A stretch of DNA of 64,000 nucleotides from Leptonemataceae bacterium (GTDB taxonomy: Bacteria; Spirochaetota; Leptospiria; Leptospirales; Leptonemataceae). The notes below the pieces were generated by a model that saw only the letters and a list, made by a program, of their open reading frames with translations, ran no database searches and was not told the DNA's origin. The stretch spans positions 4,512,001-4,576,000 of the forward strand of contig OZ245742.1 of the NCBI GenBank assembly GCA_965227295.1. The letters are read 5' to 3'. Below are positions 26,261 to 47,690 of this stretch, piece by piece. Position numbers and translations under genes: made by a program. Numbering within the stretch: the first letter of the stretch is position 1; every line of letters begins with the position of its first letter.

Positions 26261-27316
26261 ATGATTCATGCGCGTATCGCCGGCATCGGCGCCGAGATTC
26301 CGCCGCGACGGCTCTCCAACGAAGAGTGGGAACGCATGACGGACACATCCGCCGAATGGCTGGAAAAGAACGTCGGCATTCGCACTCGCAGCCGCATCGG
26401 CGAAGACCAGAGCCTGGCGGACCTGGGCTCCGCCGCCGCCCGGCGCGCCCTGGACATGGCCGGCCTGGACGCGGCGGATCTGGACTACATCCTGTGCGCC
26501 ACGAACTCCCAGGACGATATTTTTCCCTCGACAGCATCAAAAATTCAGCAGGCCCTGGGTGCCGAAAGCGCCACCTCCTCGGACCTGCAGGCCGGCTGCA
26601 CCGGCTGGCTCTACGCCATGCAACTGGGCTGCGCCCTGGTGCGCGGCGGCGAGGCCCGGCGCGTGCTGGTGATCGGCGTGGAATCCCTCATTCGTTCGCT
26701 GTATCTTTACGATCGTGACAGCGCCCTGTTCGGCGACGGCGCTGGCGCGGCCGTGATCACCGCCGAGGACGCGGACGCCTTCAGTGCTCGCGCTAACGGC
26801 CACGCACAAGAAGTCAGCATGCCGATCTTTGCGACGAACACGGTGCCGTCCTTCGCGTTGCATCATCCTACGTACCATCACGAAGAACACAACGCCGTGG
26901 AACTGTATCTGGAAGGCCGGGACATGGCTCAGGCCCCTCGCGCCCGACCGAAGATGGACGGCAAGGCATCTATGAAACTCGCCATCAACGGCACGCTGGA
27001 CGTGGTTACGCGGCTCTTTCAGACCGCGCAGGAACGATACGGCCTCTCCCGCGAGGATGTCGACGTGTTCATGCCGCACCAAACCAACGTGCATCTGGTG
27101 AAGAAGATGTGCGAGACCCTCGGTTACAATTTCGAAGACATTCCGTTTATTCTGGATAAGTACGGCTGCATCAGCACCGCCGCAATGCCCACCGGGCTCT
27201 GGGAGCACATGCAGGCCGGCAAACTGAAGCGCGGCGACCTGGTCCTGTGTGCCGGCTACGGCGCCGGCTGGACCTGCGGGGCCATGCTCTTTCGCTGGGA
27301 TCCCGCGCAGAACTAA
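26261..27316 (+). CDS. 3-oxoacyl-ACP synthase III family protein
   Basis: AGCTGW, LFGDGAGA, PHQTN, GYGAG; YGC in place of the usual YGN catalytic Asn. Confidence 0.85.
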   Translation: MIHARIAGIGAEIPPRRLSNEEWERMTDTSAEWLEKNVGIRTRSRIGEDQSLADLGSAAARRALDMAGLDAADLDYILCATNSQDDIFPSTASKIQQALGAESATSSDLQAGCTGWLYAMQLGCALVRGGEARRVLVIGVESLIRSLYLYDRDSALFGDGAGAAVITAEDADAFSARANGHAQEVSMPIFATNTVPSFALHHPTYHHEEHNAVELYLEGRDMAQAPRARPKMDGKASMKLAINGTLDVVTRLFQTAQERYGLSREDVDVFMPHQTNVHLVKKMCETLGYNFEDIPFILDKYGCISTAAMPTGLWEHMQAGKLKRGDLVLCAGYGAGWTCGAMLFRWDPAQN

Positions 27317-27408
27317 AGACGCATTCGCACGGCCGTTTTCCGGTTGGCTCCTGTCGCGTATTTGGGGAGATGGTTGTTCCGCCGTGTCCCCGGATGCGGC
27401 GAAACTCT

Positions 27409-28113
<705 letters not shown>

Positions 28114-29341
28114 TTCTGAGATATAGCGGGGGCGGATTTCGTGGGCGCAACGGTGTTTGTAGTATACGTACGATCCCCGGCCGCTTTTGCCCTTTTGGTG
28201 GTCTGCTGTGAAGAGATTACGGTCATCTTCGCAGTGAGCGCAACGGATTAGACGGGTGAAATGTGCCTGGCGACGGTTTTTTTTGAGCCCCACGGCCTGG
28301 GTTGCGATACGCTTTTTTCTTGCCAGCCAGCGGGCTTTGTCGTAGTAAATTTGTGGTTCCAAGGCCAGCGGGTGCACATTTTGACCATCGGCGTCATAAT
28401 GGGAGCTGTAAACTTTCCCGCGCCAGATGAATTCTCCGTGGTATTCATGGCGCTCTGTTAAGAGTTTGTATATATTGCCTTTGGTCCACGCCTTGCCGGA
28501 CTGGTTCTTGAGGCCGATATCGTTCAGGTGAGCAACGAACTCGGGGAGGGTATAATTGCTGGAATCAAAATTATCGAAGATGTAACGAAGATCATATTCA
28601 GAACGTGGGTCGATCTCGTAGAGTTTTTTCTGGCGGTTATAGAGATAACCCCAAGCTCCATGACCGGGCTTTACACGCCACGAGAGCTTCTTTTGTTGGC
28701 CTTCTTGAATGCGCCAGCCTAAGTTGTCCGTCTCATGCTTGCCGATGACGCCCTGCACAAGGTACGACATTACGATGGAGGGATGAGTGTTTTCGTCGAG
28801 AGTAATGCCTAACGCATAAAAAACAATGACGATTCCTGAGCGGCGTAGTTCATCGATTCGATTAATGTCCGGCAAATTCCGGGCCGCTCGAGTAGCATCC
28901 TTAAAGTAAATCCGATCGCCGGCACAAGATAAGTGTTTGCGCACTGTAGCATAAATTGAAACCACGGACGCTGCTCTTTAGATGCGCTCTCGATGAACTG
29001 AAAGTTGTGGACGACTTCGTAACCATCACGCTTCGCTTGAGCCATACCATGTTCATTCTGGTATGCGAGACTGGTGCCGTCCTCTTGAGATGTGCTGGAC
29101 ACTCGATCTACAGTGAATGCTTTTCGAGATATAGTACGGCCAGATCTGCGCCTCAGTAATTCAACAATTGCGTTCTTCTCATTCTGCGTCATGAAGAATT
29201 CTGTGAAATCCTCCATCTTAAGCGCAAGCGAAATTCTCTTAAACGCAATCAAGGCCGTACCCTATTTGGATTACATCGCCTACTTAGAACACCAGTTTTA
29301 CTACAGCACAAGCCCCGCATTTTTTGCGCCAAAGATTCTTC

Positions 29342-33011: not shown

Positions 33012-33746
33012 ACCCGTCTTATCGAAGCGATCGACGGCGCCGTGGCTACGCTTCAATTTACCGGAGCCTACGCCGAACGTCTCGGCCGCCTCTTCGAGGG
33101 GGCGATGACTCAGCAAGCGTCGAATTTCAAATCGGACCAGAAGTATATCCGGTTGAAGTGCGAAAGCCTGGATCAGCAGATCCGGCGGTTATACAGAGAA
33201 TACGCGGCCAGCGAACCAGCCGCCGCGCGGCAGATCATGGAAACCATCCGCGAAATGCAGGATGAAATCAAGACGCTGGAGAAAAAAGGCCAGAGCCTGC
33301 GCGCGGAAGACTTCGAGATCAACAACACCATCCTGCGATACATTGAAGAACTGCGGACGATTCCGGAAAAGTATCTGGCGGCGCGGACCACTGCGGAGAA
33401 AGCGAAACTTCTGCGAAACATGGTGCGCGCGATCTACGTGGACGGCGACGAGGTCATTTTCGACTGGCAAGAGCCGTATGCCTTCCTGGCGGACGAAGGC
33501 ATCTATCTGGCACTCACGAAACCGCGCGGGGGCTGGAAGAGCGGTGGTAAGCTCGCGGCGCAGCGCGCCGCCGCGAGCTTACCACCGCACACCCCGCAAA
33601 TGTCAGGGTGTTCGATTCCGTTTACTTCTGCGGAGCCAGCGAAACGCAGATCGAAAAAGCTGTCCGTGGAAGCGGAGATCGCCGCGCATATCCGGCTGAT
33701 GTTTCGGTTCTGGATGGCCGGCAAGAAACTTGCTGCCCACGGCTGA
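33012..33746 (+). pseudogene. 5'-truncated duplicate of serine recombinase 3' end with alternative (attP-type) C-terminus
   Basis: Identical to 27490-28113 reversed, then continues SAEPAKRRSKK..AAHG* after the CTCCGCAGAA core. Confidence 0.75.
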
Positions 33747-35366: not shown

Positions 35367-35527
35367 GTGATAGATTCCTCCGGGGGAAGGCTAAACACAC
35401 GGCGGCATACTGCAAGTTTAAACTCAAGGAAAGTTAATTTTTTGCTGACAAAAGCCCGGAGACATGCTAACATCACGAAATGTTACTCTAGTAAATGTCG
35501 ATGCACGAGGTCGCCCGCTTCTCTCTT

Positions 35528-35600
35528 TCAGGGGTGCGGGATTCGAACCCACTTCCCGGGGGACACAGTCCCGGATGTTAGCCGCATACACCAACCCCTA
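35528..35600 (-). tRNA. trnH: tRNA-His(GUG), array 1
   Basis: Loop CT-GTG-TC; GTTCGAATCC; one anticodon-stem mismatch. Confidence 0.75.
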
Positions 35601-35605
35601 TTGAA

Positions 35606-35679
35606 AATCCCGGCGAGGACTCGAACCCCGATCGACGGGGATAGAAGCCCCGTGCTTTTTCCCGTTAAGCTACCGGGAT
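35606..35679 (-). tRNA. trnR: tRNA-Arg(UCU), array 1
   Basis: CGGGG-CTTCTAT-CCCCG anticodon arm. Confidence 0.85.
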
Positions 35680-35682
35680 ACT

Positions 35683-35755
35683 TCGAAGCGGCTGGAATCG
35701 AACCAACACCAACGGCATATCAGAGCGTCGTTCTCAACCGTTAAACTACGCTTCG
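35683..35755 (-). tRNA. trnI: tRNA-Ile(GAU), array 1
   Basis: Loop CT-GAT-AT; acceptor CGAAGCG/CGCTTCG. Confidence 0.8.
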
Positions 35756-35759
35756 TATG

Positions 35760-35830
35760 CACCACGTAGGGGAGTCGAACCCCTGCTACTCGATCGACAA
35801 TCGGGCGTTCTACCGTTAAACTAATGCGGC
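35760..35830 (-). tRNA. trnD: tRNA-Asp(GUC), array 1
   Basis: Loop TT-GTC-GA; G73. Confidence 0.8.
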
Positions 35831-35836
35831 AAACTG

Positions 35837-35910
35837 TAGGGCCCGCGGGACTCGAACCCGCAATCTCCAGATTCGTAATCTGATGCCTTGATCCATTTGG
35901 CCAGGGCCCT
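35837..35910 (-). tRNA. trnR: tRNA-Arg(ACG), array 1
   Basis: TCAGA-TTACGAA-TCTGG. Confidence 0.9.
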
Positions 35911-35913
35911 GTG

Positions 35914-35987
35914 TTGGACTTGCAGGACTCGAACCTGCGGCCTTCCGCCTCGGAAGCGGGTGCTCTTTCCCTCTGAGCTAAAGTCCA
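35914..35987 (-). tRNA. trnR: tRNA-Arg(CCG), array 1
   Basis: CCCGC-TTCCGAG-GCGGA. Confidence 0.85.
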
Positions 35988-35990
35988 GTG

Positions 35991-36061
35991 TGGAGCCGGT
36001 GGGAATCGAACCCACATCTGTTGCTTGCAAAACAAAGATTCTCCCGTTAAACTACGGCCCC
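35991..36061 (-). tRNA. trnA: tRNA-Ala(UGC), array 1
   Basis: Loop TT-TGC-AA; G3:U70 identity pair. Confidence 0.85.
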
Positions 36062-36064
36062 GTG

Positions 36065-36138
36065 TACGGGCTGCTGGATTCGAACCAGCGATCTCCTGTT
36101 TGTAAGACAGGCGTTCTGACCTGCTAAACTAAGCCCGT
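36065..36138 (-). tRNA. trnV: tRNA-Val(UAC), array 1
   Basis: CCTGT-CTTACAA-ACAGG. Confidence 0.9.
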
Positions 36139-36141
36139 GTG

Positions 36142-36213
36142 TTGCGGCGAAAGGAATTGAACCTCCGTAGGACGGGTTATGAGCCCGTTGCATCGCCACT
36201 ATGCTACACCGCA
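36142..36213 (-). tRNA. trnM: tRNA-Met(CAU), initiator-like, array 1
   Basis: ACGGG-CTCATAA-CCCGT with three consecutive G-C pairs; TTCAA T-loop. Confidence 0.85.
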
Positions 36214-36219
36214 ATGTTT

Positions 36220-36294
36220 TGCCCGGTGCATGGATTCGAACCTGCAACCAGCGGTTTACAAAACCGCCGCTCTAACCATTGGAGCTAACCGGGC
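36220..36294 (-). tRNA. trnT: tRNA-Thr(UGU), array 1
   Basis: GCGGT-TTTGTAA-ACCGC. Confidence 0.9.
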
Positions 36295-36297
36295 GTG

Positions 36298-36369
36298 TGC
36301 ATCAGCAGGGAATCGAACCCTGATGATCTGCTTGGAAGACAGACATGTTGGCCGTTACATCACTGATGC
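36298..36369 (-). tRNA. trnG: tRNA-Gly(UCC), array 1
   Basis: TCTGT-CTTCCAA-GCAGA. Confidence 0.85.
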
Positions 36370-36373
36370 GTAT

Positions 36374-36447
36374 TCGTCGGGTTCGGGATCGAACCGAATT
36401 CTCTCGCTTTTCAGGCGAGCGCTCATGACCACACCTGCTCCCCGACG
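36374..36447 (-). tRNA. trnF: tRNA-Phe(GAA), array 1
   Basis: CTCGC-CTGAAAA-GCGAG. Confidence 0.8.
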
Positions 36448-36504
36448 TTCGTCTTGTTCTTCTTAAAGTCACTTTCGCTCATATTTACTCCTTAGTGCGA
36501 AATG

Positions 36505-36576
36505 TGGGTCCGGTGGGATTCGAACCCACGGCCATCCGATTAAAAGTCGGATGCTCTACCCCCGAGCTCCGGACCC
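36505..36576 (-). tRNA. trnK: tRNA-Lys(UUU), array 1
   Basis: TCCGA-CTTTTAA-TCGGA. Confidence 0.9.
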
Positions 36577-36577
36577 G

Positions 36578-36616
36578 CTATTCTCTAAATGTCTTCTTGT
36601 CATCTTCGCTCTTCAT
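36578..36616 (-). CDS. Mini-ORF MKSEDDKKTFRE between tRNA-Gly and tRNA-Lys
   Basis: SD AGGAG; identical peptide in array 2 with synonymous ACA/ACG change. Confidence 0.4.
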   Translation of the reverse strand: MKSEDDKKTFRE

Positions 36617-36641
36617 GGCGTATCTCCTGTTGCTTATGATG

Positions 36642-36714
36642 TGCACCGCAAGAGACTCGAACTCTTCCCTGCTGCATGGCACACAGCTATGCTTGCCACT
36701 AACACCAGCGATGC
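36642..36714 (-). tRNA. trnG: tRNA-Gly(GCC), array 1
   Basis: GCTGT-GTGCCAT-GCAGC. Confidence 0.8.
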
Positions 36715-36723
36715 GTTTAAACG

Positions 36724-36757
36724 AAAAAACCCTCCAGGGAGTCGGCCGGGGAGGGTT
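36724..36757 (-). terminator. Attenuator terminator before 14-tRNA cluster, array 1
   Basis: AACCCTCC..GGAGGGTT stem plus U-tract. Confidence 0.8.
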
Positions 36758-36784
36758 CTTCATGAATGCGTTTGCAGATTCTTC

Positions 36785-36901
36785 TCAGCAACGCATGCGC
36801 AGAACTCCTCCGGCGATCCGGCCGTCCTTATGGCCCGCATCGATCCGCATCCCGATAAATCGGGCGGTTCTCACAACCGTTGCTGTTACTGTTAAGCTCA
36901 T
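36785..36901 (-). CDS. Leader peptide MSLTVTATVVRTARFIGMRIDAGHKDGRIAGGVLRMRC (array 1)
   Basis: 38 codons; residues 4-33 are exclusively amino acids of the downstream tRNAs; 3' part complementary to terminator 5' arm. Confidence 0.75.
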   Translation of the reverse strand: MSLTVTATVVRTARFIGMRIDAGHKDGRIAGGVLRMRC

Positions 36902-36951
36902 GATAGAATACTCAGACGAATCCCTTGTTAAATTTCTTATAAAAATATCTT

Positions 36952-37023
36952 TGCCGACGCAGGGAATCGAAACCTGATTACCGCAGTGAAAGTGCGAGGT
37001 CCTTGCCTTTAGACGACGCCGGC
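36952..37023 (-). tRNA. trnE: tRNA-Glu(UUC), array 1
   Basis: TCGCA-CTTTCAC-TGCGG; T-stem has one mismatch in this copy. Confidence 0.75.
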
Positions 37024-37119
37024 GATTTGAGTTGAAACGTAGTTAGGTCCACGTTCCCGTTCTCGCGGCATCGCTCCAGCTGACACGTATGTACGTCCTG
37101 CGCGGTTCATTATACTATG

Positions 37120-37190
37120 AGACATGGGTGGGATTCGAACCCACGTAAACGGCTTTGCAGACCGCCCGCTGGCCTCTCGCGCACCATGTC
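37120..37190 (-). tRNA. trnC: tRNA-Cys(GCA), array 1
   Basis: GCGGT-CTGCAAA-GCCGT; U73. Confidence 0.8.
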
Positions 37191-37285
37191 GGGTTTACTC
37201 TGGCTTGCGGCGGTCGGTAACATCGTTCTCTGTCTTCCATATCTCCCTCATAACACTTGAAAAATAAGCAAAATGCCCATAAACG

Positions 37286-37319
37286 AAAAAAGGCGAGCCG
37301 TTGATCCGGGCTCGCCTTT
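37286..37319 (-). terminator. Attenuator terminator before Cys/Glu tRNAs, array 1
   Basis: AAAGGCGAGCC..GGCTCGCCTTT plus U-tract. Confidence 0.8.
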
Positions 37320-37343
37320 CGCATCCAGCAGGTTACACTGAAT

Positions 37344-37451
37344 CTAAGACGAGCGCATGACTCCCTGAAACACATCACGCTCACAACCCGCATGAATCAT
37401 GCCGGCCTTCGCGAGGTCTCGTTCCGTTCTATGTTGGCGCTTCGGCGACAT
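37344..37451 (-). CDS. Leader peptide MSPKRQHRTERDLAKAGMIHAGCERDVFQGVMRSS (array 1)
   Basis: 35 codons downstream of a TTGACG -35 box; GCTCGTCTT at 3' end pairs with terminator 5' arm. Confidence 0.55.
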   Translation of the reverse strand: MSPKRQHRTERDLAKAGMIHAGCERDVFQGVMRSS

Positions 37452-37531
37452 TCCGTTTCCTGAATACTTACTTGGTATTCGACGTCAACAACTTCATAAA
37501 GATTTAAATATTTTTTTCATGGAACTCAATG

Positions 37532-37604
37532 TTCCGGGAGATGGATTCGAACCATCAACCCCCGACTTCAAAGGCCGGTGTTCTACCCGTTGAACTACCC
37601 CGGA
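37532..37604 (-). tRNA. trnQ: tRNA-Gln(UUG), array 1
   Basis: CCGGC-CTTTGAA-GTCGG; U1-A72. Confidence 0.85.
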
Positions 37605-37612
37605 ATGAGTTG

Positions 37613-37684
37613 CACCGGAGGCAGGACTCGAACCTGCATAGAACGCATTAACATTGCGTCGCCTTACCATTAGGCTACTCCGGT
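37613..37684 (-). tRNA. trnN: tRNA-Asn(GUU), array 1
   Basis: ACGCA-ATGTTAA-TGCGT; G73. Confidence 0.85.
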
Positions 37685-37688
37685 ATTC

Positions 37689-37766
37689 TGGCAGAGGGAA
37701 CAGGATTCGAACCTGTGAACATCGGATTTGGAGTCCGACAGCTTGGACCGCTCGACTCATCCCTCT
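37689..37766 (-). tRNA. trnW: tRNA-Trp(CCA), array 1
   Basis: TCGGA-CTCCAAA-TCCGA; encoded GCCA end. Confidence 0.85.
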
Positions 37767-37769
37767 ATG

Positions 37770-37842
37770 TCGGCGTGGTGGGACTTGAACCCACGACCCC
37801 CGGTTCCCGAAACCGGTGCTCTACACCCTGAGCTATACGCCG
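37770..37842 (-). tRNA. trnP: tRNA-Pro(CGG), array 1
   Basis: CCGGT-TTCGGGA-ACCGG; C1-G72, A73. Confidence 0.9.
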
Positions 37843-37848
37843 GATAAT

Positions 37849-37882
37849 AAAAAACCCCCTCAAGCTTCCGCCGGAGGGGGTT
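37849..37882 (-). terminator. Attenuator terminator before Pro/Trp/Asn/Gln tRNAs, array 1
   Basis: AACCCCCTC..GAGGGGGTT plus U-tract, ending 7 nt before tRNA-Pro. Confidence 0.85.
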
Positions 37883-37911
37883 CTCGCGCAAACGCGCTGT
37901 TGCTCAGAGCA

Positions 37912-37983
37912 CTACACGACCACCTCCAGGCAGATGCCGGGATTCTGTTGGGGCCAGTTGCTCTGTGGGAAAAACATGCTCAT
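37912..37983 (-). CDS. Leader peptide MSMFFPQSNWPQQNPGICLEVVV (array 1)
   Basis: P/Q/N/W make up 9 of 10 consecutive codons; in-frame 6-nt indel relative to array 2. Confidence 0.8.
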   Translation of the reverse strand: MSMFFPQSNWPQQNPGICLEVVV

Positions 37984-38087
37984 CACGTTTACCTGAAGTT
38001 AAGAGACGACGGTTTTCGAGAAATCCTTAACGAAAATATATTTTTTGGAACGAAAGCTTCGCTTTGCCTCGTCTCATCTACCGTATC

Positions 38088-38156
38088 ATGAACGGTATGT
38101 TACTATCATCGCTGTATCTTCTCAGCTCCGGCGGCATGCGGGAGGCGGCGATGTAG
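38088..38156 (+). CDS. Leader peptide MNGMLLSSLYLLSSGGMREAAM (array 1)
   Basis: Ten consecutive L/S/Y codons, each a different codon; precedes Tyr/Ser/Leu tRNAs. Confidence 0.82.
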   Translation: MNGMLLSSLYLLSSGGMREAAM

Positions 38157-38184
38157 TACGCGCAGACAGTTTTCTGTCTTCGAG

Positions 38185-38224
38185 AAGCCCCTCCCGGTGA
38201 ACCCGCGAGGGGCTTTTTGTTTTT
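38185..38224 (+). terminator. Attenuator terminator before Tyr/Ser/Leu tRNAs, array 1
   Basis: AAGCCCCTC..GAGGGGCTT plus TTTGTTTTT. Confidence 0.85.
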
Positions 38225-38228
38225 AAAC

Positions 38229-38315
38229 GCGCTGCTTTCCTCCTGCCGGTCTGTAAAGCCGGGGTCGTTAAACGAGGAGGTCGGGAGACGAGAGGTTCAA
38301 ATCCTCGGCAGCGCA
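38229..38315 (+). tRNA. trnY: Atypical tRNA-Tyr(GUA)-like gene lacking canonical D-arm, array 1
   Basis: Acceptor GCGCTGC/GCAGCGC, CCGGT-CTGTAAA-GCCGG, GTTCAAATCC; only 10 nt between acceptor and anticodon stems. Confidence 0.65.
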
Positions 38316-38319
38316 TACT

Positions 38320-38403
38320 GGATAGATGCCCGAGTGGTAAGGGACCCGTTTCGAAAACGGAGGTCGGCGGTTCGTCGCGTGGGTTCGATTCCTACTCTAT
38401 CCG
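38320..38403 (+). tRNA. trnS: tRNA-Ser(CGA), array 1
   Basis: Loop TT-CGA-AA; long variable arm; G73. Confidence 0.85.
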
Positions 38404-38409
38404 CATTAC

Positions 38410-38493
38410 GGAGGGATGACCGAGTGGTAAGGTATCCGGTTGGAAGCCGGTGGTCATCGATGAGATGCGAAGGTTCGATTCCTTCTCCCTCCG
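38410..38493 (+). tRNA. trnS: tRNA-Ser(GGA), array 1
   Basis: Loop TT-GGA-AG; long variable arm; G73. Confidence 0.85.
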
Positions 38494-38499
38494 AGAAAT

Positions 38500-38584
38500 G
38501 GAACAGTGGCCGAGAGGTAAGGCAGCGGTCCGCTAAACCGTGGTCGTCGTAACAGACGCGGAGGTTCGATTCCTCCCTGTTCCG
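38500..38584 (+). tRNA. trnS: tRNA-Ser(GCU), array 1
   Basis: GCGGT-CCGCTAA-ACCGT (C33); long variable arm. Confidence 0.85.
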
Positions 38585-38587
38585 CAG

Positions 38588-38662
38588 CGAGCGATAGCCC
38601 AATCAGGCAGAGGCAGTCGACTTAAAATCGGCAGAGTGCGGGTTCGATTCCCGCTCGCTCAA
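38588..38662 (+). tRNA. trnL: tRNA-Leu(UAA), short variable loop, array 1
   Basis: GTCGA-CTTAAAA-TCGGC. Confidence 0.85.
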
Positions 38663-38665
38663 AAC

Positions 38666-38738
38666 GCATCCGTAGCCCAACGGTAGAGGCACCAGGTCGA
38701 GAGCCTGGTCAGTGCAGGTTCGAATCCGGCCGGATGCA
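38666..38738 (+). tRNA. trnL: tRNA-Leu(GAG), short variable loop, array 1
   Basis: CCAGG-TCGAGAG-CCTGG (C33). Confidence 0.75.
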
Positions 38739-38741
38739 CAC

Positions 38742-38814
38742 GGGGACGTAGCCCAACGGCAGAGGCAGCACGCTCAGAACGTGTCCAGTGTGAGTTCGAA
38801 TCTCGCCGCCCCCA
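38742..38814 (+). tRNA. trnL: tRNA-Leu(CAG), short variable loop, array 1
   Basis: GCACG-CTCAGAA-CGTGT. Confidence 0.85.
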
Positions 38815-38985
38815 TAGAGTCTCCACTGAAGAGATTTGCGACCTCGTGCATCGACATTTACTAGAGTAACATTTCGTGATGTTAGCATGTCTCCGGGCTT
38901 TTGTCAGCAAAAAATTAACTTTCCTTGAGTTTAAACTTGCAGTATGCCGCCGTGTGTTTAGCCTTCCCCCGGAGGAATCTATCAC

Positions 38986-41356: not shown

Positions 41357-43340
41357 GTCGCGGTAGAACGGCCGGTTGCCCGGCCGCCCCCGCACAGATC
41401 CCGGCGTGCGGTATTCTCGCACCGGGCTCTTCGAAAGCACTCGCTTCCACATAAAGTCAATTCAGAGTAAGTCGCAACTGAGATACTGGTCGTTCCATGA
41501 TGCGCGGTTTTTCGATCCGGTAGTGCGCCATCAGATCCCTCAGCCCCTGCCAGTCCAGACTCCGGCGCTGACTGCGCCGATTGAGCCACTTGTACAGATT
41601 CATTTCCACCTGATAGTAGAAGCTTCGTATACTCTTGTAGTTGCATTGGACGCCATAATAGTTATAGTATCCACGCAGCCGGGAGTTCAGAAGATTGAAG
41701 AACCTGCGCATGGGTAGATGCCGATTCGCTTTAATCCACTGCTTCACATTCTGGATCGACGCATGCAATCGCTTTGGAGCGGTGCGACGCGGAACCCACC
41801 AGAACCCCTTTCGAGAACGAGCCCAGCGGTATTCAAAGCCTAGAAATACGAACGCCTCACGCCCGGTATTGAACTTCGCGCGGAAGCCCGGGCGCTCGAA
41901 ACTTTTCACTCCTGACTTTTCCGGCGCCAGTTCCAGACCAAACTTTCGCAAACGTTTTCCAAGCGTCGCATAGAATTTCAGCGCATCGTCTTTGGATTCA
42001 AAGGCGCAAACAAAATCGTCCGCGTATCGACACATATAGGCCGGTCTCTTGCAGTGCTTCTTCACCACTTTCTCGAACCAGAGGTCCAGTACGTAATGAA
42101 GATAGACGTTCGCCAGAACCGGACTGATCACGCCGCCTTGAGGAGTCCCAGCGGTCGGGCGCGAGACCTGACCGTTTACCTCCAGCACGCCTGCTTTCAG
42201 CCACTTGCGAATCAGACCGAGAAAGGCCCGATCATCGATTCGTTGCTCCAGCATTCGCATCAACCAATCATGGTCAATGTTGTCGAAGAAACCCTTGATG
42301 TCGGCTTCCACAATCCAGCCGAGCTTCCCCGGACTCAAAGTTGAACTCAGAGTCTTCGAAGCCTCACGCGGACCGGTGTTCGGCCGATAACCATACGAAC
42401 ACGACAGGAAGTCTTGCTCATAGATCGCTTCAAGGATACGCGTCGCGCATGTTTGTACCAGTTTGTCTTCGAGGGCCGGCAATCCAAGCGGACGTTGTTT
42501 TCCGTCCGCTTTCGGGATAAAGACCCTGCGAATCAGTTTTGTTCGGTATCGTTTCTGTTTTAAGCGTTCCACCAGATCCCCGACATTTTCCGTAAGGTTC
42601 GCTTCGTAGTCGCGAAACGTTTCACGGTCCACGCCCGGAGCCGCCCGGCGATTCATTCCTGCGAACGAATCTTCGAGATTCATCTGGTTGAGCATCCCAT
42701 ACAGATTACGAAACAGATGTTTCTTACTCCTCCTCGCTTTATTTGCTATTGCCCGTAGTGAGGTTTGCATCAGTTGTTCCGATCCTGCCGTCCGGCTGAT
42801 GTTGACTCTGCGAGCTGCGTACTTTCGTCAGCCCCTTCCCCGATCATCGCGCATCGCACGCGAAGACCGAACCCGTCGAAACTCCATTCGAGTTTCATTC
42901 GATTCTGTGGACGGCTCTCCCGCCCTCTGAGTACTATGGGCTGATCCGACTCCCCGTTGATCATCATTCTTCCTTGTTCATTCGGTCAGAATTACCTTCG
43001 CTATCGTCGAAGGAACCAACGGGGTCTCCCGGGTTCCACGATGTTTCTCTGCATACATGCCGCGCTCAAGCGACCCCGACAGACCTCCAGAATCTCGCTA
43101 AAACGATTCCTTTGTGCTGGTTTCCATCTGACCAATGATGTCACCGTCTGCATCTATGGCATTTTACGAGGCTCAACAGCTTCCGGGAGTGTGGACTCCC
43201 CTACGGCCTGCATGCTTCCCTGTGTACGCTTCGTGTGGCGGTTACCCGCTTCCACGCAACACTCGGTAGAAGTTGTTCGCTAAACTTTACTTCATATGGA
43301 CTTTCACCTTATCAGAAACATCGGGCTTTGCCCGGCGCAC
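41357..43340 (-). mobile_element. Group II intron, 1984 nt
   Basis: 5' GTGCG at 43340; domain V GAGCCCGGTGCGAGAATACCGCACGCCGGGATC; 3' ..CTACCGCGAC; exons rejoin to TGGCCA|CAGAGAAC seen intact at 33965-33978. Confidence 0.95.
41457..42770 (-). CDS. ltrA: Group II intron reverse transcriptase/maturase without endonuclease domain
   Basis: IPKADGKQRPLG, SYGYRP, EADIKGFFD, PQGG, RYADD, FLGF, domain X LRGYYNYY; no C-terminal HNH. Confidence 0.95.
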   Translation of the reverse strand: MQTSLRAIANKARRSKKHLFRNLYGMLNQMNLEDSFAGMNRRAAPGVDRETFRDYEANLTENVGDLVERLKQKRYRTKLIRRVFIPKADGKQRPLGLPALEDKLVQTCATRILEAIYEQDFLSCSYGYRPNTGPREASKTLSSTLSPGKLGWIVEADIKGFFDNIDHDWLMRMLEQRIDDRAFLGLIRKWLKAGVLEVNGQVSRPTAGTPQGGVISPVLANVYLHYVLDLWFEKVVKKHCKRPAYMCRYADDFVCAFESKDDALKFYATLGKRLRKFGLELAPEKSGVKSFERPGFRAKFNTGREAFVFLGFEYRWARSRKGFWWVPRRTAPKRLHASIQNVKQWIKANRHLPMRRFFNLLNSRLRGYYNYYGVQCNYKSIRSFYYQVEMNLYKWLNRRSQRRSLDWQGLRDLMAHYRIEKPRIMERPVSQLRLTLN

Positions 43341-43822: not shown

Positions 43823-43955
43823 TGGGGACGGTGAGACTCGAACTCACACTAGACACGTTCTGAGCGTGCTGCCTCTACCGCGAATGTAAGCAGTTGCTCC
43901 CGGGTGGTCGCAACTGCGGCGGTTCAGACTGCTTCGCAGTCTGGGCTACGGATGC
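43823..43955 (-). pseudogene. trnL: Chimeric tRNA-Leu (5' end of GAG gene, body of CAG gene) with ~61-nt D-loop insertion, array 2
   Basis: GCATCCGTAGCCCA + insert 43881-43941 + CGGTAGAGGCAGCACGCTCAGAA..CGTCCCCA; acceptor strands do not match. Confidence 0.8.
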
Positions 43956-43958
43956 GTT

Positions 43959-44033
43959 TCGAGCGAGCGGGAATCGAACCCGCACTCTGCCGATTTTAAG
44001 TCGACTGCCTCTGCCTGATTGGGCTATCGCTCG
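43959..44033 (-). tRNA. trnL: tRNA-Leu(UAA), array 2
   Basis: Near-identical to 38588-38662. Confidence 0.85.
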
Positions 44034-44036
44034 CTG

Positions 44037-44121
44037 CGGAACAGGGAGGAATCGAACCTCCGCGTCTGTTACGACGACCACGGTTTAGCGGACCGCTGCC
44101 TTACCTCTCGGCCACTGTTCC
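44037..44121 (-). tRNA. trnS: tRNA-Ser(GCU), array 2
   Basis: Matches 38500-38584. Confidence 0.85.
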
Positions 44122-44127
44122 AATTTC

Positions 44128-44212
44128 CGGAGGGAGAAGGAATCGAACCTTCGCGCCTGTTAAGACGACCGCCGGCTTCCAACCGGATACCTTACCACTC
44201 GGTCATCCCTCC
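44128..44212 (-). tRNA. trnS: tRNA-Ser(GGA), array 2
   Basis: Matches 38410-38493 with different variable arm. Confidence 0.85.
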
Positions 44213-44218
44213 ACGCTG

Positions 44219-44302
44219 CGGATAGAGTAGGAATCGAACCCACGCGACGAACCGCCGACCTCCGTTTTCGAAACGGGTCCCTTACCACTCGGGCATCTAT
44301 CC
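44219..44302 (-). tRNA. trnS: tRNA-Ser(CGA), array 2
   Basis: Matches 38320-38403. Confidence 0.85.
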
Positions 44303-44306
44303 AGTA

Positions 44307-44443
44307 TGCGCTGCCGAGGATTTGAACCTCTCGTCACCCGACCTCCTCGTTTAACGAGTAAACTGTACCTTGCTGCGCAAGCCTTGACTTACTACCGCCT
44401 TTCAGTTGCTGGCGTTTACAGACCGGCAGGAGGAAAGCAGCGC
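44307..44443 (-). pseudogene. trnY: Atypical tRNA-Tyr(GUA) interrupted by ~55-nt insertion, array 2
   Basis: Matches 38229-38315 except extra sequence ~44358-44413 at 3' side of anticodon stem. Confidence 0.7.
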
Positions 44444-44447
44444 GTTT

Positions 44448-44487
44448 AAAAAGAAAAAGCCCCTCGCGGGTTTACCGGGAGGGGCTT
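44448..44487 (-). terminator. Attenuator terminator (Tyr/Ser/Leu cluster), array 2
   Basis: Same stem as 38185-38224; changes fall outside the closing GC stem. Confidence 0.85.
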
Positions 44488-44515
44488 CTCGAAGACAGAG
44501 AACTGTCCGCGCGTA

Positions 44516-44584
44516 CTACATCGCCGCCTCCCGCATGCCGCCGGAGCTGAGAAGATACAGCGATGATAGTAACATACCGTTCAT
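44516..44584 (-). CDS. Leader peptide MNGMLLSSLYLLSSGGMREAAM (array 2)
   Basis: Identical to 38088-38156. Confidence 0.82.
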   Translation of the reverse strand: MNGMLLSSLYLLSSGGMREAAM

Positions 44585-44688
44585 GATACGGTACATGAGA
44601 CGAGGCAAAGCGAAGCTTTCGTTCCAAAAAATATATTTTCGTTAAGAATTTCTCGAAAACCGTCGTCTCTTAACTTCAGGTAAACGTG

Positions 44689-44754
44689 ATGCACTTCCCA
44701 CAGAGCAACTGGCCCCAACAGAATCCCGGCATCTGCCTGGAGGTGGTCGTGTAG
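44689..44754 (+). CDS. Leader peptide MHFPQSNWPQQNPGICLEVVV (array 2)
   Basis: AGGT SD-like sequence upstream; P/Q/N/W run conserved. Confidence 0.8.
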   Translation: MHFPQSNWPQQNPGICLEVVV

Positions 44755-44783
44755 TGCTCTGAGCAACAGCGCGTTTGCGCGAG

Positions 44784-44817
44784 AACCCCCTCCGGCGGAA
44801 GCTTGAGGGGGTTTTTT
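44784..44817 (+). terminator. Attenuator terminator (Pro/Trp/Asn/Gln cluster), array 2
   Basis: AACCCCCTC..GAGGGGGTTTTTT. Confidence 0.85.
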
Positions 44818-44823
44818 ATTATC

Positions 44824-44896
44824 CGGCGTGTAGCTCAGGGTGTAGAGCACCGGTATCGGGAACCGGGGGTCGTGGGTTCAAGTCCCACCACGCCGA
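44824..44896 (+). tRNA. trnP: tRNA-Pro(CGG), array 2
   Basis: CCGGT-ATCGGGA-ACCGG. Confidence 0.85.
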
Positions 44897-44899
44897 CAT

Positions 44900-45076
44900 A
44901 GAGGGATGAGTCGAGCGGTCCAGGCTGTCGGACTCCAAATCCGATGTTCACAGGTTTTTGTGCATGGATGCACTTATGCCGCGGAGGACAGGAAGTCCGG
45001 GAGCGGCCGAATCCTGAAAGAGGAAGATGCTACGCATCTTTCATCTTACTGACGCGCTGCGCTTGTCCCTCTGCCA
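44900..45076 (+). pseudogene. trnW: tRNA-Trp(CCA) with two insertions (44957-45007 in T-loop; 45017-45065 in T-stem 3' side), array 2
   Basis: Alignment to intact copy 37689-37766. Confidence 0.85.
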
Positions 45077-45080
45077 GAAT

Positions 45081-45152
45081 ACCGGAGTAGCCTAATGGTA
45101 AGGCGACGCACTGTTAATGCGTTCTATGCAGGTTCGAGTCCTGCCTCCGGTG
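45081..45152 (+). tRNA. trnN: tRNA-Asn(GUU), array 2
   Basis: ACGCA-CTGTTAA-TGCGT. Confidence 0.9.
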
Positions 45153-45160
45153 CAACTCAT

Positions 45161-45294
45161 TCCGGGGTAGTTCAACGGGTAGAACACCGGCCTTTGAAGT
45201 CGGGGGCGCAAATAGACTTTTGCCTTATGGCAAAAGTCGGCGGTTCGGAGTTGTGCGGCAACGCACAACTCCGGGTCCTCACCATCTCCCGGAG
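45161..45294 (+). pseudogene. trnQ: tRNA-Gln(UUG) with T-arm 5' half replaced by 75-nt double-hairpin insert (45207-45281), array 2
   Basis: Alignment to 37532-37604. Confidence 0.8.
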
Positions 45295-45374
45295 CATTGA
45301 GTTCTATGAAAAAAATATTTAAATCTTTATGAAGTTGTTGACGTCGAATACCGAGTAAGTAATCAGGAAACGGA

Positions 45375-45482
45375 ATGTCGCAGAAGCGCCTACAGACAAC
45401 GGAACGAGACCTCGCGAAGGCCGGCATGATTCATGCGGGTTGTGAGCGTGATGTGTTTCAGGGAGTCATGCGCTCGTCTTAG
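45375..45482 (+). CDS. Leader peptide MSQKRLQTTERDLAKAGMIHAGCERDVFQGVMRSS (array 2)
   Basis: Same length as array 1 copy; residues 9-35 identical. Confidence 0.55.
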   Translation: MSQKRLQTTERDLAKAGMIHAGCERDVFQGVMRSS

Positions 45483-45506
45483 ATTCAGTGTAACCTGCTG
45501 GATGCG

Positions 45507-45540
45507 AAAGGCGAGCCCGGATCAACGGCTCGCCTTTTTT
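45507..45540 (+). terminator. Attenuator terminator (Cys/Glu cluster), array 2
   Basis: AAAGGCGAGCC..GGCTCGCCTTTTTT. Confidence 0.8.
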
Positions 45541-45635
45541 CGTTTATGGGCATTTTGCTTATTTTTCAAGTGTTATGAGGGAGATATGGAAGACAGAGAA
45601 CGATGTTACCGACCGCCGCAAGCCAGAGTAAACCC

Positions 45636-45758
45636 GACATGGTGCGCGAGAGGCCAGCGGGCGGTCTGCAAAGCCGTTTAACGTGGGTTTGTGTGCAGGG
45701 ATGCACTTATGCCGCGAAGGACAGGATGTCCGGGAGCGGCCGAATCCCACCCATGTCT
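45636..45758 (+). pseudogene. trnC: tRNA-Cys(GCA) with 51-nt T-loop insertion (45690-45740), array 2
   Basis: GGTT[insert]CGAATCC versus 37120-37190. Confidence 0.85.
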
Positions 45759-45854
45759 CATAGTACAATGAACCGCGCAGGACGTACATATGTATCAGCC
45801 GGAGCGATGCCGCGAGAGCGGGAACGTGGATCAAGCTACGTTTCAACTCAAATC

Positions 45855-45926
45855 GCCGGCGTCGTCTAACGGCAAGGACGCTGCACTTTCACTGCGGTAA
45901 TCGGGGTTCGATTCCCCGCGTCGGCA
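45855..45926 (+). tRNA. trnE: tRNA-Glu(UUC), array 2
   Basis: Loop CT-TTC-AC; intact T-arm CGGGG-TTCGATT-CCCCG. Confidence 0.85.
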
Positions 45927-45976
45927 AAGGTATTTTCATAAGAAATTTAACAATGGATTCGTCTGAGTATTCTATC

Positions 45977-46093
45977 ATGAGCTTAACAGTAACAGCAACG
46001 GTTGTAAGGACCGCCCGATTTATCGGGATGCGGATCGATGCGGGCCATAAGGACGGCCGGATCGCCGGAGGAGTTCTGCGCATGCGTTGCTGA
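45977..46093 (+). CDS. Leader peptide MSLTVTATVVRTARFIGMRIDAGHKDGRIAGGVLRMRC (array 2)
   Basis: Same peptide as array 1; differences seen (GTG/GTA, AGA/AGG) are synonymous. Confidence 0.78.
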   Translation: MSLTVTATVVRTARFIGMRIDAGHKDGRIAGGVLRMRC

Positions 46094-46120
46094 GAAGAAT
46101 CTACAGACGCATTCATGAAG

Positions 46121-46154
46121 AACCCTCCCCGGCCGACGCCCTGGAGGGTTTTTT
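46121..46154 (+). terminator. Attenuator terminator (large cluster), array 2
   Basis: AACCCTCC..GGAGGGTTTTTT. Confidence 0.8.
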
Positions 46155-46163
46155 CGTTTATAC

Positions 46164-46236
46164 GCATCGCTGGTGTCAGTGGCAAGCATAGCTGTGTGCC
46201 ATGCAGCAGGGAAGAGTTCGAGTCTCTTGCGGTGCA
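46164..46236 (+). tRNA. trnG: tRNA-Gly(GCC), array 2
   Basis: Matches 36642-36714. Confidence 0.8.
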
Positions 46237-46301
46237 CATTACAGAAAACAGGAGGTACGCCATGAAGAGCGAAGATGACAAGAAGACGTTTAGAGAATAG
46301 C

Positions 46302-46419
46302 GGGTCCGGAGCTCGGGGGTAGAGCATCCGACTTTTAATCGGATGGCGATCGGTTGAGTGCTTCGCACTCTCATCTTACTCCCGCCTTTCAGTTGGGGGT
46401 TCGAATCCCACCGGACCCA
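46302..46419 (+). pseudogene. trnK: tRNA-Lys(UUU) with ~46-nt insertion at variable loop/T-stem (~46348-46394), array 2
   Basis: Alignment to 36505-36576. Confidence 0.8.
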
Positions 46420-46477
46420 CATTTCAAGTAGCGAGGTTAATATGAACGAAAGTGACTTTAAGAATAATAAGACGGAA

Positions 46478-46550
46478 CGTCGGGGAGCAGGTGTGGTCAT
46501 TGCATCCGGTTGAAGCCCGGAGGAATTCGGTTCGATCCCGAGCCCGACGA
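46478..46550 (+). tRNA. trnF: tRNA-Phe(GAA), array 2
   Basis: TCCGG-TTGAAGC-CCGGA. Confidence 0.8.
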
Positions 46551-46554
46551 ATAC

Positions 46555-46677
46555 GCATCAGTGATGTAACGGTCAACATGTCTGTCTTCCAAACAGATCA
46601 TCAGGGTTTTTGGCCATGGATGGCCTTATGCCGCGGAGGACAGGAGGTCCGAGAGCGGCCGATTCCCTGCTGATGCA
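46555..46677 (+). pseudogene. trnG: tRNA-Gly(UCC) with 51-nt T-loop insertion (46609-46659), array 2
   Basis: GGTT[insert]CGATTCC versus 36298-36369. Confidence 0.85.
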
Positions 46678-46680
46678 CAC

Positions 46681-46755
46681 GCCCGGTTAGCTCCAATGGT
46701 TAGAGCGGCGGTTTTGTGAACCGCTGGTTGCAGGTTCGAATCCGTGCACCGGGCA
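46681..46755 (+). tRNA. trnT: tRNA-Thr(UGU), array 2
   Basis: GCGGT-TTTGTGA-ACCGC. Confidence 0.85.
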
Positions 46756-46761
46756 AAACAT

Positions 46762-46833
46762 TGCGGTGTAGCATAGTGGCGATGCAGCGGGCTCATAACC
46801 CGTCCTACGGAGGTTCAATTCCTTCCGCCGCAA
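46762..46833 (+). tRNA. trnM: tRNA-Met(CAU), initiator-like, array 2
   Basis: GCGGG-CTCATAA-CCCGT. Confidence 0.85.
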
Positions 46834-46836
46834 CAT

Positions 46837-46959
46837 ACGGGCTTAGGACGCAATATAAACGCCTGTCTTACAAACAGGAGATCGCTGGTTTTTGTGCATG
46901 GATGCACTTATGCCGCGGAGGCCAGGAGGGCCGAGAGCGGCCGAATCCGGCAGCCCGTA
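46837..46959 (+). pseudogene. trnV: tRNA-Val(UAC) with 51-nt T-loop insertion (46891-46941) and altered D-arm, array 2
   Basis: Alignment to 36065-36138. Confidence 0.85.
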
Positions 46960-46962
46960 CAT

Positions 46963-47033
46963 GGGGCCGTAGTTTAACGGGAGAATCTTTGTTTTGCAAA
47001 CAAGGGACGTCGGTTCGATTCCGACCGGTTCCA
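46963..47033 (+). tRNA. trnA: tRNA-Ala(UGC), array 2
   Basis: Loop TT-TGC-AA; G3:U70. Confidence 0.85.
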
Positions 47034-47038
47034 CAAAT

Positions 47039-47163
47039 TGGACTTTAGCTCAGAGGGACAGAGCGCCCGTTTCCGAAGCGGTAGGCCGCAGGTTTTTGGC
47101 CACGGATGGCCTTATGCCGCGAAGGACAGGAGGTCCGAGAGCGGCCGAGTCCTGCAAGTCCAA
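47039..47163 (+). pseudogene. trnR: tRNA-Arg(CCG) with 51-nt T-loop insertion (47095-47145), array 2
   Basis: GGTT[insert]CGAGTCC versus 35914-35987. Confidence 0.85.
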
Positions 47164-47166
47164 CAC

Positions 47167-47240
47167 AGGGCCCTGGCCAAATGGATCAAGGCATCAGATT
47201 ACGAATCTGAAGATTGCGGGTTCGAGTCCCGCGGGCTCTA
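47167..47240 (+). tRNA. trnR: tRNA-Arg(ACG), array 2
   Basis: TCAGA-TTACGAA-TCTGA. Confidence 0.9.
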
Positions 47241-47243
47241 CAT

Positions 47244-47314
47244 GCCGCGTTAGTTTAATGGTAGAACTCCTGATTGTCTCTCAGGGGGCGAGGGTTCGAT
47301 TCCCTCACGTGGTG
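47244..47314 (+). tRNA. trnD: tRNA-Asp(GUC), array 2
   Basis: CCTGA-TTGTCTC-TCAGG. Confidence 0.85.
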
Positions 47315-47318
47315 CATA

Positions 47319-47430
47319 CGAAGCGTAGTTTAACGGTTGAGAACGACGGTCTGATATGCCGTTGGTTAAAGACGAAGATTCAGCGTTATGCGTGAACGCA
47401 TAACGCTGGGTTCGATTCCAGCCGCTTCGA
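47319..47430 (+). pseudogene. trnI: tRNA-Ile(GAU) with ~39-nt hairpin insertion at variable loop/T-stem, array 2
   Basis: Extra TAAAGACGAAGATTCAGCGTTATGCGTGAACGCATAAC versus 35683-35755. Confidence 0.8.
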
Positions 47431-47433
47431 AGC

Positions 47434-47451
47434 ATCCCGGTAATCGGGATT
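47434..47451 (+). pseudogene. Collapsed tRNA-Arg(UCU): only acceptor-stem ends remain, array 2
   Basis: ATCCCGGTA-ATCGGGATT in the syntenic position of 35606-35679. Confidence 0.7.
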
Positions 47452-47456
47452 TTCAT

Positions 47457-47529
47457 AAGGGGTTGGTGTATGTGGCTAACATCCGGGATTGTGTCTCCCG
47501 GGCAGTGGGTTCGAATCCCGCACCCCTGA
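47457..47529 (+). tRNA. trnH: tRNA-His(GUG), array 2
   Basis: CGGGA-TTGTGTC-TCCCG. Confidence 0.8.
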
Positions 47530-47690
47530 AAGAGAGAAGCGGGCGATCTCATGCATCGATATTTACTAGAGTAACATTGCATGATGTTAGCATGTCGCCA
47601 GGTTTTTGTCAGCAAAAAATTAACTTTCCTTGAGTTTAAACTTGTAATATGCCGCCATGTATTTAGCCTTCCCCCGGAGGAAACTATCAC

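Follow-up and report, generated by a model that had tools for sequence, protein, structure and literature searches.

Candidate leader-peptide attenuators precede each block of a mobile tRNA array that covers 20 amino acids

Leader peptides govern attenuation of bacterial amino-acid biosynthetic operons and of pheST, the described examples including trpL, hisL, leuL, thrL, ilvL, pheL and pheM. A second group of leader RNAs, the T-box riboswitches, bind uncharged tRNA directly and need no translation; their targets are synthetase, biosynthesis or transporter genes. The mechanisms by which bacteria control tRNA genes differentially are largely unknown according to the authors of a study of the Anabaena long tRNA array, which is switched on by translational stress (PMC8421152). 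In Anabaena sp. PCC 7120, the repressor TrcR of the trn operon binds direct repeats that overlap both the -10 box and the start site (PMC8421152; PMC10272220), and the text searched in these two papers makes no mention of a leader, attenuation, a terminator or an upstream ORF.

Here we describe a dense tRNA array in which each of four tRNA blocks is preceded by a short leader open reading frame (ORF) and an intrinsic terminator. We propose, with a probability of roughly 70%, that these are four trp/his-type ribosome-mediated transcription attenuators, each gating one block of a 20-amino-acid tRNA array. The ORFs, the match between their composition and the downstream tRNAs, the terminators and the alternative pairings are present and conserved in both copies of the array. 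The anatomy matches leader-peptide attenuation, a known mechanism, but with tRNA genes as the target; a literature search covering few subscription journals found no report of tRNA genes controlled in this way. Rfam models of the His, Trp, Leu, Thr and Phe leader families and of the T-box gave no match at E <= 1 over positions 27000–49000.

The window, by which we mean the whole 64-kb stretch of DNA analysed, contains 42 tRNA genes (ARAGORN). A stretch of 47–55% GC, from about 28 to 48 kb, lies between flanks of 60–65% GC, and at its edge tRNA-Ser(cga) (27409–27495) adjoins a large serine-recombinase integrase (27313–28965). Within it, array 1 (35528–38814) packs 26 ARAGORN tRNAs and one tRNA-like element into 3.3 kb and is flanked by identical DUF6908 genes. 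Array 2 (43823–47530) is an inverted copy of array 1, 88–99% identical, with 15 ARAGORN tRNAs and several further tRNAs broken by insertions. The locus shows the defining features of an L-array, namely tens of dense supernumerary tRNAs on mobile low-GC DNA with an integrase, and the tRNA array is horizontally acquired and carried on a mobile island. Its four tRNA blocks have disjoint amino-acid sets that sum to 20 when Tyr is counted through the tRNA-like element.

Other elements of the island lie around the arrays. Between the two arrays, a group II intron (41357–43304, minus strand; RF02005, 130.7 bits, with a weak domain V/VI match) carries an RT/maturase ORF at 41457–42770. An ORF at 47691–48542 (plus strand) matches the DUF6908/phrog_9098 protein that flanks the arrays over its first ~59 residues and a TetR-family regulator over the remainder, and probably marks where the island joins a host gene on its right-hand side. 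A palindromic element of ~66 nt occurs in two island copies (27528–27593 and 33532–33597), each giving a spurious microRNA-family match on both strands.

The largest block, unit A (35528–36714, minus strand), comprises 14 tRNA genes (ARAGORN) in the order Gly-gcc, Lys, Phe, Gly-tcc, Thr, Met, Val, Ala, Arg-ccg, Arg-acg, Asp, Ile, Arg-tct and His. Its leader ORF, leader A (36785–36901, minus strand; 38 codons and a stop), encodes MSLTVTATVVRTARFIGMRIDAGHKDGRIAGGVLRMRC. An earlier, sequence-only reading of this DNA had singled out residues 4–33 of this peptide, and these are drawn solely from G, K, F, T, M, V, A, R, D, I and H, with all 11 present; as that reading held, and as the ARAGORN calls bear out, this set is exactly that of the amino acids of the 14 tRNAs encoded downstream on the same strand. 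Weighed against local composition, a check that the reading had itself proposed, 30 such residues in a row have P = 5e-9 per position (array-region GC 0.53), falling to 1e-9 per position, or ~6e-5 expected per whole window, when all 11 residues are required. Among the 127,996 codons of the six frames, the longest runs limited to the unit A set are the 30 residues of leader A and of its array-2 copy, followed by a run of 22. The two copies of leader A differ at two sites, GTG/GTA and AGA/AGG, both of them synonymous as first noticed. The leader A codons ACA, GTA, GCA, GGA, AGA and CGG are read by isoacceptors of the array, as had also been pointed out, but this correspondence does not go beyond chance: given the peptide, coverage of all 14 isoacceptors is expected in 9–43% of random synonymous codings.

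Leader A is separated from its tRNAs by terminator A (36715–36758, minus strand), which consists of a hairpin at 36727–36758 and a T-rich tail. An intrinsic terminator with a T tail lies between the leader stop codon and the first tRNA in 8/8 units, at -15 to -26 kcal/mol. The attenuator terminators have loops longer than the 8 nt that a standard promoter and terminator scan allows, and were therefore missed by it; a purpose-written scan for hairpins with T runs, used in its place for terminators, gave 19 matches over 2 x 64 kb at 17 distinct sites, eight of which are the attenuator terminators, four per array.

In leader A, codons 26–34 of 38 (36800–36824, minus strand) can pair with the 5′ arm of terminator A and would thus act as the antiterminator strand. 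The sequence-only reading had placed this pairing in array 2, between CCGGAGGAGTTCT (46065–46077) and AGAACCCTCCCCGG (46119–46132); both segments sit at those positions, and their pairing proved to be the best duplex between the terminator 5′ arm and the upstream leader, with an energy of -26.3 kcal/mol that 0/1000 dinucleotide shuffles reached. The parts of that reading that can be examined in silico thus agree, and they support its implied conclusion that a leader peptide and attenuator report on the downstream tRNAs.

The same layout occurs three more times. Unit B (37531–37842, minus strand) carries tRNA genes for Pro-cgg, Trp, Asn and Gln-ttg (ARAGORN), with terminator B (37843–37883, minus strand; hairpin 37852–37883, -22.6 kcal/mol, and a T tail) and leader B (37912–37983, minus strand; MSMFFPQSNWPQQNPGICLEVVV) ahead of them; the segment of leader B that begins MSMFFPQSNWPQQNP thereby lies upstream of the tRNAs for Pro, Trp, Asn and Gln. 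Unit C (36952–37190, minus strand) consists of tRNA-Cys (37119–37190) and tRNA-Glu (36952–37023; both ARAGORN), preceded by terminator C (37277–37319, minus strand; hairpin 37289–37319, -19.4 kcal/mol, and a T tail) and by leader C (37344–37451, minus strand), whose 35 codons include the stretch AGCERD. Unit D (38320–38814, plus strand) carries genes for Ser-cga, Ser-gga, Ser-gct, Leu-taa, Leu-gag and Leu-cag (ARAGORN) behind leader D (38088–38156, plus strand; MNGMLLSSLYLLSSGGMREAAM) and terminator D (38181–38228, plus strand; hairpin 38181–38219, -25.9 kcal/mol, and a T tail). The leader D segment that begins MNGMLLSSLYLLSS lies upstream of a Tyr-like tRNA, three Ser and three Leu tRNAs. Each leader–terminator unit is compact, at about 150–200 nt, and the four leader ORFs, of 22–38 codons, each stand directly upstream of a tRNA block in both arrays.

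The first gene of unit D is the tRNA-like element (38229–38314, plus strand), which ARAGORN did not call. It combines an acceptor stem and a T arm with a long extra arm and a loop, CUGUAAA, that contains the Tyr anticodon GUA; it is without a D arm and scores 21.6 bits (E 0.017) against the tRNA-Sec model, under the gathering score. It is the sole candidate for a tRNA-Tyr in the array, although this reading of it is uncertain. With Tyr included, unit D would serve Tyr, Ser and Leu, which are exactly the amino acids of class II tRNAs.

Each leader is most enriched in the amino-acid set of its own unit. Residues of that set make up 33/37 in leader A, 9/22 in leader B, 3/34 in leader C and 10/21 in leader D, against six-frame backgrounds of 0.59, 0.14, 0.065 and 0.18, respectively (binomial P of 6e-5, 2e-3, 0.38 and 2e-3). 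In leader B, NWPQQNP is a run of 7 and, in leader D, LLSSLYLLSS is a run of 10; each is the longest for its set in the six frames of the 64 kb, tied with one other. The per-position chance is 3e-7 both for leader B (at least 9 of 10) and for leader D, and the leader D run uses 10 different codons for its 10 residues (P between 0.002 and 0.03).

Alternative pairing follows the same pattern across the units. The best duplex between the terminator 5′ arm and the leader falls in the final ORF codons in 4/4 leaders: beyond leader A, the antiterminator strands lie at codons 17–22 of 23 in leader B (37918–37934, minus strand) and at codons 17–21 of 22 in leader D (38138–38150, plus strand), and the best duplex of leader C involves codons 33–36, that is, the end of its 35-codon ORF plus the stop. 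The observed energies were reached by 17/1000 shuffles for leader B, 10/1000 for leader D and 303/1000 for leader C, so that the pairing is significant in A, B and D and not in C. Leader C is accordingly the weak member of the group, since neither its composition (P 0.38) nor its antiterminator is significant alone.

The position of the terminators relative to the tRNA genes also bears on their role. The first tRNA begins 9–12 nt past the hairpin in units A, B and D (tRNA-Gly(gcc) 12 nt past that of terminator A, tRNA-Pro 9 nt past that of terminator B), which leaves no space for a promoter of its own, so that only read-through would make the tRNAs. Terminators B and D, which point away from each other out of a common central region, follow no unit on their own strand and therefore cannot mark the ends of upstream units. 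Terminators A and C have another tRNA unit upstream on the same strand.

As predicted from pairing and folding, this leader–terminator anatomy is that of a trp/his-type attenuator, and from it we infer that the leaders are translated, that ribosomes stall on them and that read-through is regulated. In the mechanism that we propose, transcription would begin upstream of the short leader ORF, in which the ribosome would meet a run of codons whose amino acids are precisely those of the downstream tRNAs. Were the aminoacyl-tRNA for any codon of the run to become scarce, the ribosome would stall within the run and leave the final ORF codons exposed, so that these could form the antiterminator with the terminator 5′ arm; RNA polymerase would then read through into the tRNA genes. 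With fast decoding, by contrast, the ribosome would cover the antiterminator strand, the terminator hairpin would form and no tRNAs would be made. Because the tRNA product would relieve the slow-decoding signal, each block would behave as a homeostat for its own decoding capacity.

We modelled this switch by folding the transcript up to the terminator 3′ arm while masking a ribosome footprint codon by codon, with three footprint sizes. Upstream pairing of the 5′ arm fell as the masked ribosome advanced, giving a position-dependent switch with all three footprint sizes and in both arrays. The 5′ arm was paired upstream with the A site at codons 2–27 in leader A, up to codon 15 in leader B, up to codon 29 in leader C and at codons 2–14 in leader D. 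In leaders B and D, the loss of upstream pairing coincides with the end of the regulatory run, whereas the leader A run reaches codon 33 and overshoots the positions, up to about codon 27, at which a stall favours the antiterminator. With the short footprint, a ribosome at the stop codon of leader A leaves the antiterminator unmasked. Folded without a ribosome, leader D pairs its run region with the antiterminator strand and so favours the terminator, but in units A, B and C the antiterminator forms too, so that these lack a trp-style default to termination.

A masked stall at nearly any early codon, not just at run codons, favours the antiterminator in leaders A, B and C, and this behaviour would also be expected if the same anatomy responded to general translation stress rather than to codon-specific decoding, with the amino-acid match secondary. 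Any slowing of the ribosome on the leader, by antibiotics or ribosome damage, would then cause read-through, as in erm/cat-type leaders, and in Anabaena ribosome-targeting antibiotics of every class induce the L-array (PMC8421152). We consider this alternative unlikely, although it survives better than the others. Composition would be of no consequence to a generic sensor, but three leaders match their own block at 1e-9 to 3e-7 per position and every leader is enriched above all in the set of its own unit; in B and D, moreover, the run and the stall window end together.

The codons of the leaders speak to the nature of the signal. Codons that are rare in the host occur at the sensing positions of leader A (TTA, ACA, GTA, ACA, GCA and AGA), leader D (TTA, CTA, TCA and CTT) and leader B (CCA). 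These sensor codons account for 1–12% of their synonymous families in 14 flank ORFs (8233 codons) and for 11–25% in seven island ORFs (2331 codons); flank and island use differ, for example, at ACA (5% vs 25%), AGA (1% vs 11%), TTA (5% vs 13%) and CCA (2% vs 24%). Such flank-rare, island-commoner codons abound in the 5′ parts of the leaders, and several are read by U34 tRNAs of the array. A cognate codon is present in the unit's own leader for 26/27 tRNAs, the exception being tRNA-Pro(cgg), for which leader B has no CCG codon; judged against random synonymous codings, this has P 0.14–0.17 given the peptides, and the isoacceptor-level codon match carries no significance past the amino-acid level.

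A stalled ribosome cannot distinguish a missing tRNA from an uncharged one, as is understood from trp/his attenuation (cf. PMC1183508), which leaves room for attenuation in which the signal is amino-acid starvation and the extra tRNA serves signalling or non-ribosomal substrates. This alternative seems to us slightly less probable again than general stress. Extra tRNA does not relieve amino-acid starvation, so that there is no obvious benefit, and the 5′ sensor codons, being host-rare, island-common and read by the U34 tRNAs of the array, fit a response to the supply of tRNA and not of amino acids.

Signals for expression of the leaders are sparse. All four start with ATG, and a Shine–Dalgarno sequence is found only as AGG(A/T) in leaders B and C, with no recognisable one in leaders A and D; the leader mRNAs may be leaderless. 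The promoter scan found no sigma-70-like promoter before any leader. An AAAATAT(A)TTT block common to all leaders lies about 45–65 nt upstream of the start. Elsewhere, two identical promoter-like sites (35445–35473, plus strand, and 38879–38907, minus strand; CTGACA, a 17-nt spacer and TAACAT, with TG) are located in the inverted repeats that flank array 1, pointing inwards and antisense to the tRNA units; the inverted repeat also borders array 2.

The four leaders and terminators recur in array 2. Leader A (45977–46093) and its terminator hairpin (46120–46151) occupy 45977–46157 on the plus strand; leader B (44689–44754, MHFPQSNW...) and its terminator (44783–44814) occupy 44689–44820, also plus; leader C (45375–45482) and its terminator (45507–45537) occupy 45375–45542, again plus; and leader D (44516–44584) with its terminator (44454–44490) occupies 44446–44584 on the minus strand. 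Between the arrays, leader D is identical, leader B shows an in-frame 6-nt indel, and leader C has four differences, at codons 3, 6, 7 and 8, all of them non-synonymous. This conservation is known from two paralogous copies alone, which gene conversion may have homogenised.

We searched for relatives of the leaders in several ways. A distant-mode blastn search with 36700–38330 found generic single-tRNA similarity only, in 5 plasmid and 25 phage records, none of which covered a leader, and tblastn with the neighbouring DUF6908 protein gave no match among plasmids and phages. A genome-contig scan was run with a 160-residue ORF on the opposite strand (36495–36977), which takes in tRNA-Lys, tRNA-Gly, terminator A and leader A; all of the loci that it matched (13/13) were single unrelated tRNA genes without a leader, and the genome of the window itself was also unmatched. 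The protein homologue search with this ORF found only the array-2 copy in the window. Leader A had no match by phmmer among 1.84 billion representative proteins, a result that says little because ORFs this small are rarely predicted. A convincing analogous leader, that is, a small ORF and terminator before a tRNA block, was found in 0/2 other arrays, those compared being on a Mycobacterium plasmid (26 tRNAs) and on a Vibrio plasmid (18 tRNAs).

That there is no regulation at all, the ORFs being spurious or independent small genes, the hairpins plain ends and the composition match a coincidence, is very improbable: it would accord with the lack of homologues in the genome-contig scan, phmmer and protein search, with the weak or absent Shine–Dalgarno signals and with the same-strand tRNA units that terminators A and C do follow, but the composition statistics oppose coincidence, terminators B and D follow no unit on their strand, the tRNAs at 9–12 nt past the hairpins in A, B and D have no room for a promoter of their own, and the antiterminator pairings in A, B and D are significant.

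Five tRNA genes of array 2 (Trp, Cys, Gly-tcc, Val and Arg-ccg; 44935–45020, 45668–45753, 46587–46672, 46869–46954 and 47073–47158, plus strand) carry the same structured insertion of ~52 nt in the T loop, between GGTT and CGAATCC. The 5/5 copies of this insertion in the window occupy the T-loop position and occur in array 2 only; they show compensatory double changes at three internal pairs and have no Rfam match. This insertion may represent an intron-like sequence or a small mobile hairpin whose target is the T loop of tRNAs. Insertions of other sequence (44345–44400, 45205–45280, 46340–46395 and 47345–47400) cut four further array-2 genes, those for the Tyr-like element, Gln, Lys and Ile, and most of tRNA-Arg(tct) has been deleted there. 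Although array 2 thus has the look of a copy in decay or invaded by introns, all four of its leaders and terminators are intact.

Three mini-ORFs, each with a strong Shine–Dalgarno sequence and each recurring in array 2, abut single tRNA genes. One (36578–36616, minus strand; MKSEDDKKTFRE) ends 1 nt before tRNA-Lys; a second (about 36421–36479, minus strand), beginning MSESDFKKNKTN, continues into tRNA-Phe; and a third (about 37115–37243, minus strand), beginning MEDRERCY, continues into tRNA-Cys. All three are rich in residues that match the neighbouring tRNA (K, K/F and E/C, respectively), and they may form a second tier of control coupled to translation or be what is left of older leaders.

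As to what the proposed attenuators would be for, we lean, by a small degree, towards a mobile, self-tuning decoding kit of four modules, whose leaders would sample precisely the codons of their own tRNAs and which would supply tRNAs only for codon classes that are poorly decoded in the current host, or replace lost tRNAs, such as host tRNAs removed by anticodon nucleases. If attenuation of the array is borne out, tRNA genes would for the first time be seen under ribosome-mediated attenuation, and the speed of codon decoding would feed back directly, in cis, on tRNA synthesis. A textbook mechanism would then gain a new class of target, the supply of tRNA would come under a simple, codon-specific form of control, and it would be explained how a mobile element can carry a full tRNA set at low cost. 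The four units, whose predictions are distinct, could also act as natural sensors that gauge how available particular aminoacyl-tRNAs are.

The closest described systems share parts of this design. As in attenuators of the trpL and hisL type, a short ORF that abounds in regulatory codons is followed, ahead of the first gene under control, by an intrinsic terminator; the final stretch of the ORF supplies the 5′ strand of an antiterminator that excludes the terminator, so that the position of the ribosome would decide the outcome. The present units differ in that the regulated genes are tRNAs rather than enzymes or synthetases, and the product would therefore act directly on the signal. Leader A would moreover report on 11 amino acids and leader D on three class II ones, with 10 different codons in succession, and three of the four units are without a clear termination default when untranslated. 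T-box riboswitches likewise consist of a leader RNA with a terminator/antiterminator switch that reports tRNA status, but the switch proposed here would work through translation, and no T-box match was found. Finally, the locus resembles the trn operon of PCC 7120 in being a dense, horizontally acquired array of supernumerary tRNAs that is expected to be normally silent and useful in translational trouble. Whereas the Anabaena array is held by a protein repressor, control here is apparently cis-acting and divided among four codon-specific modules.
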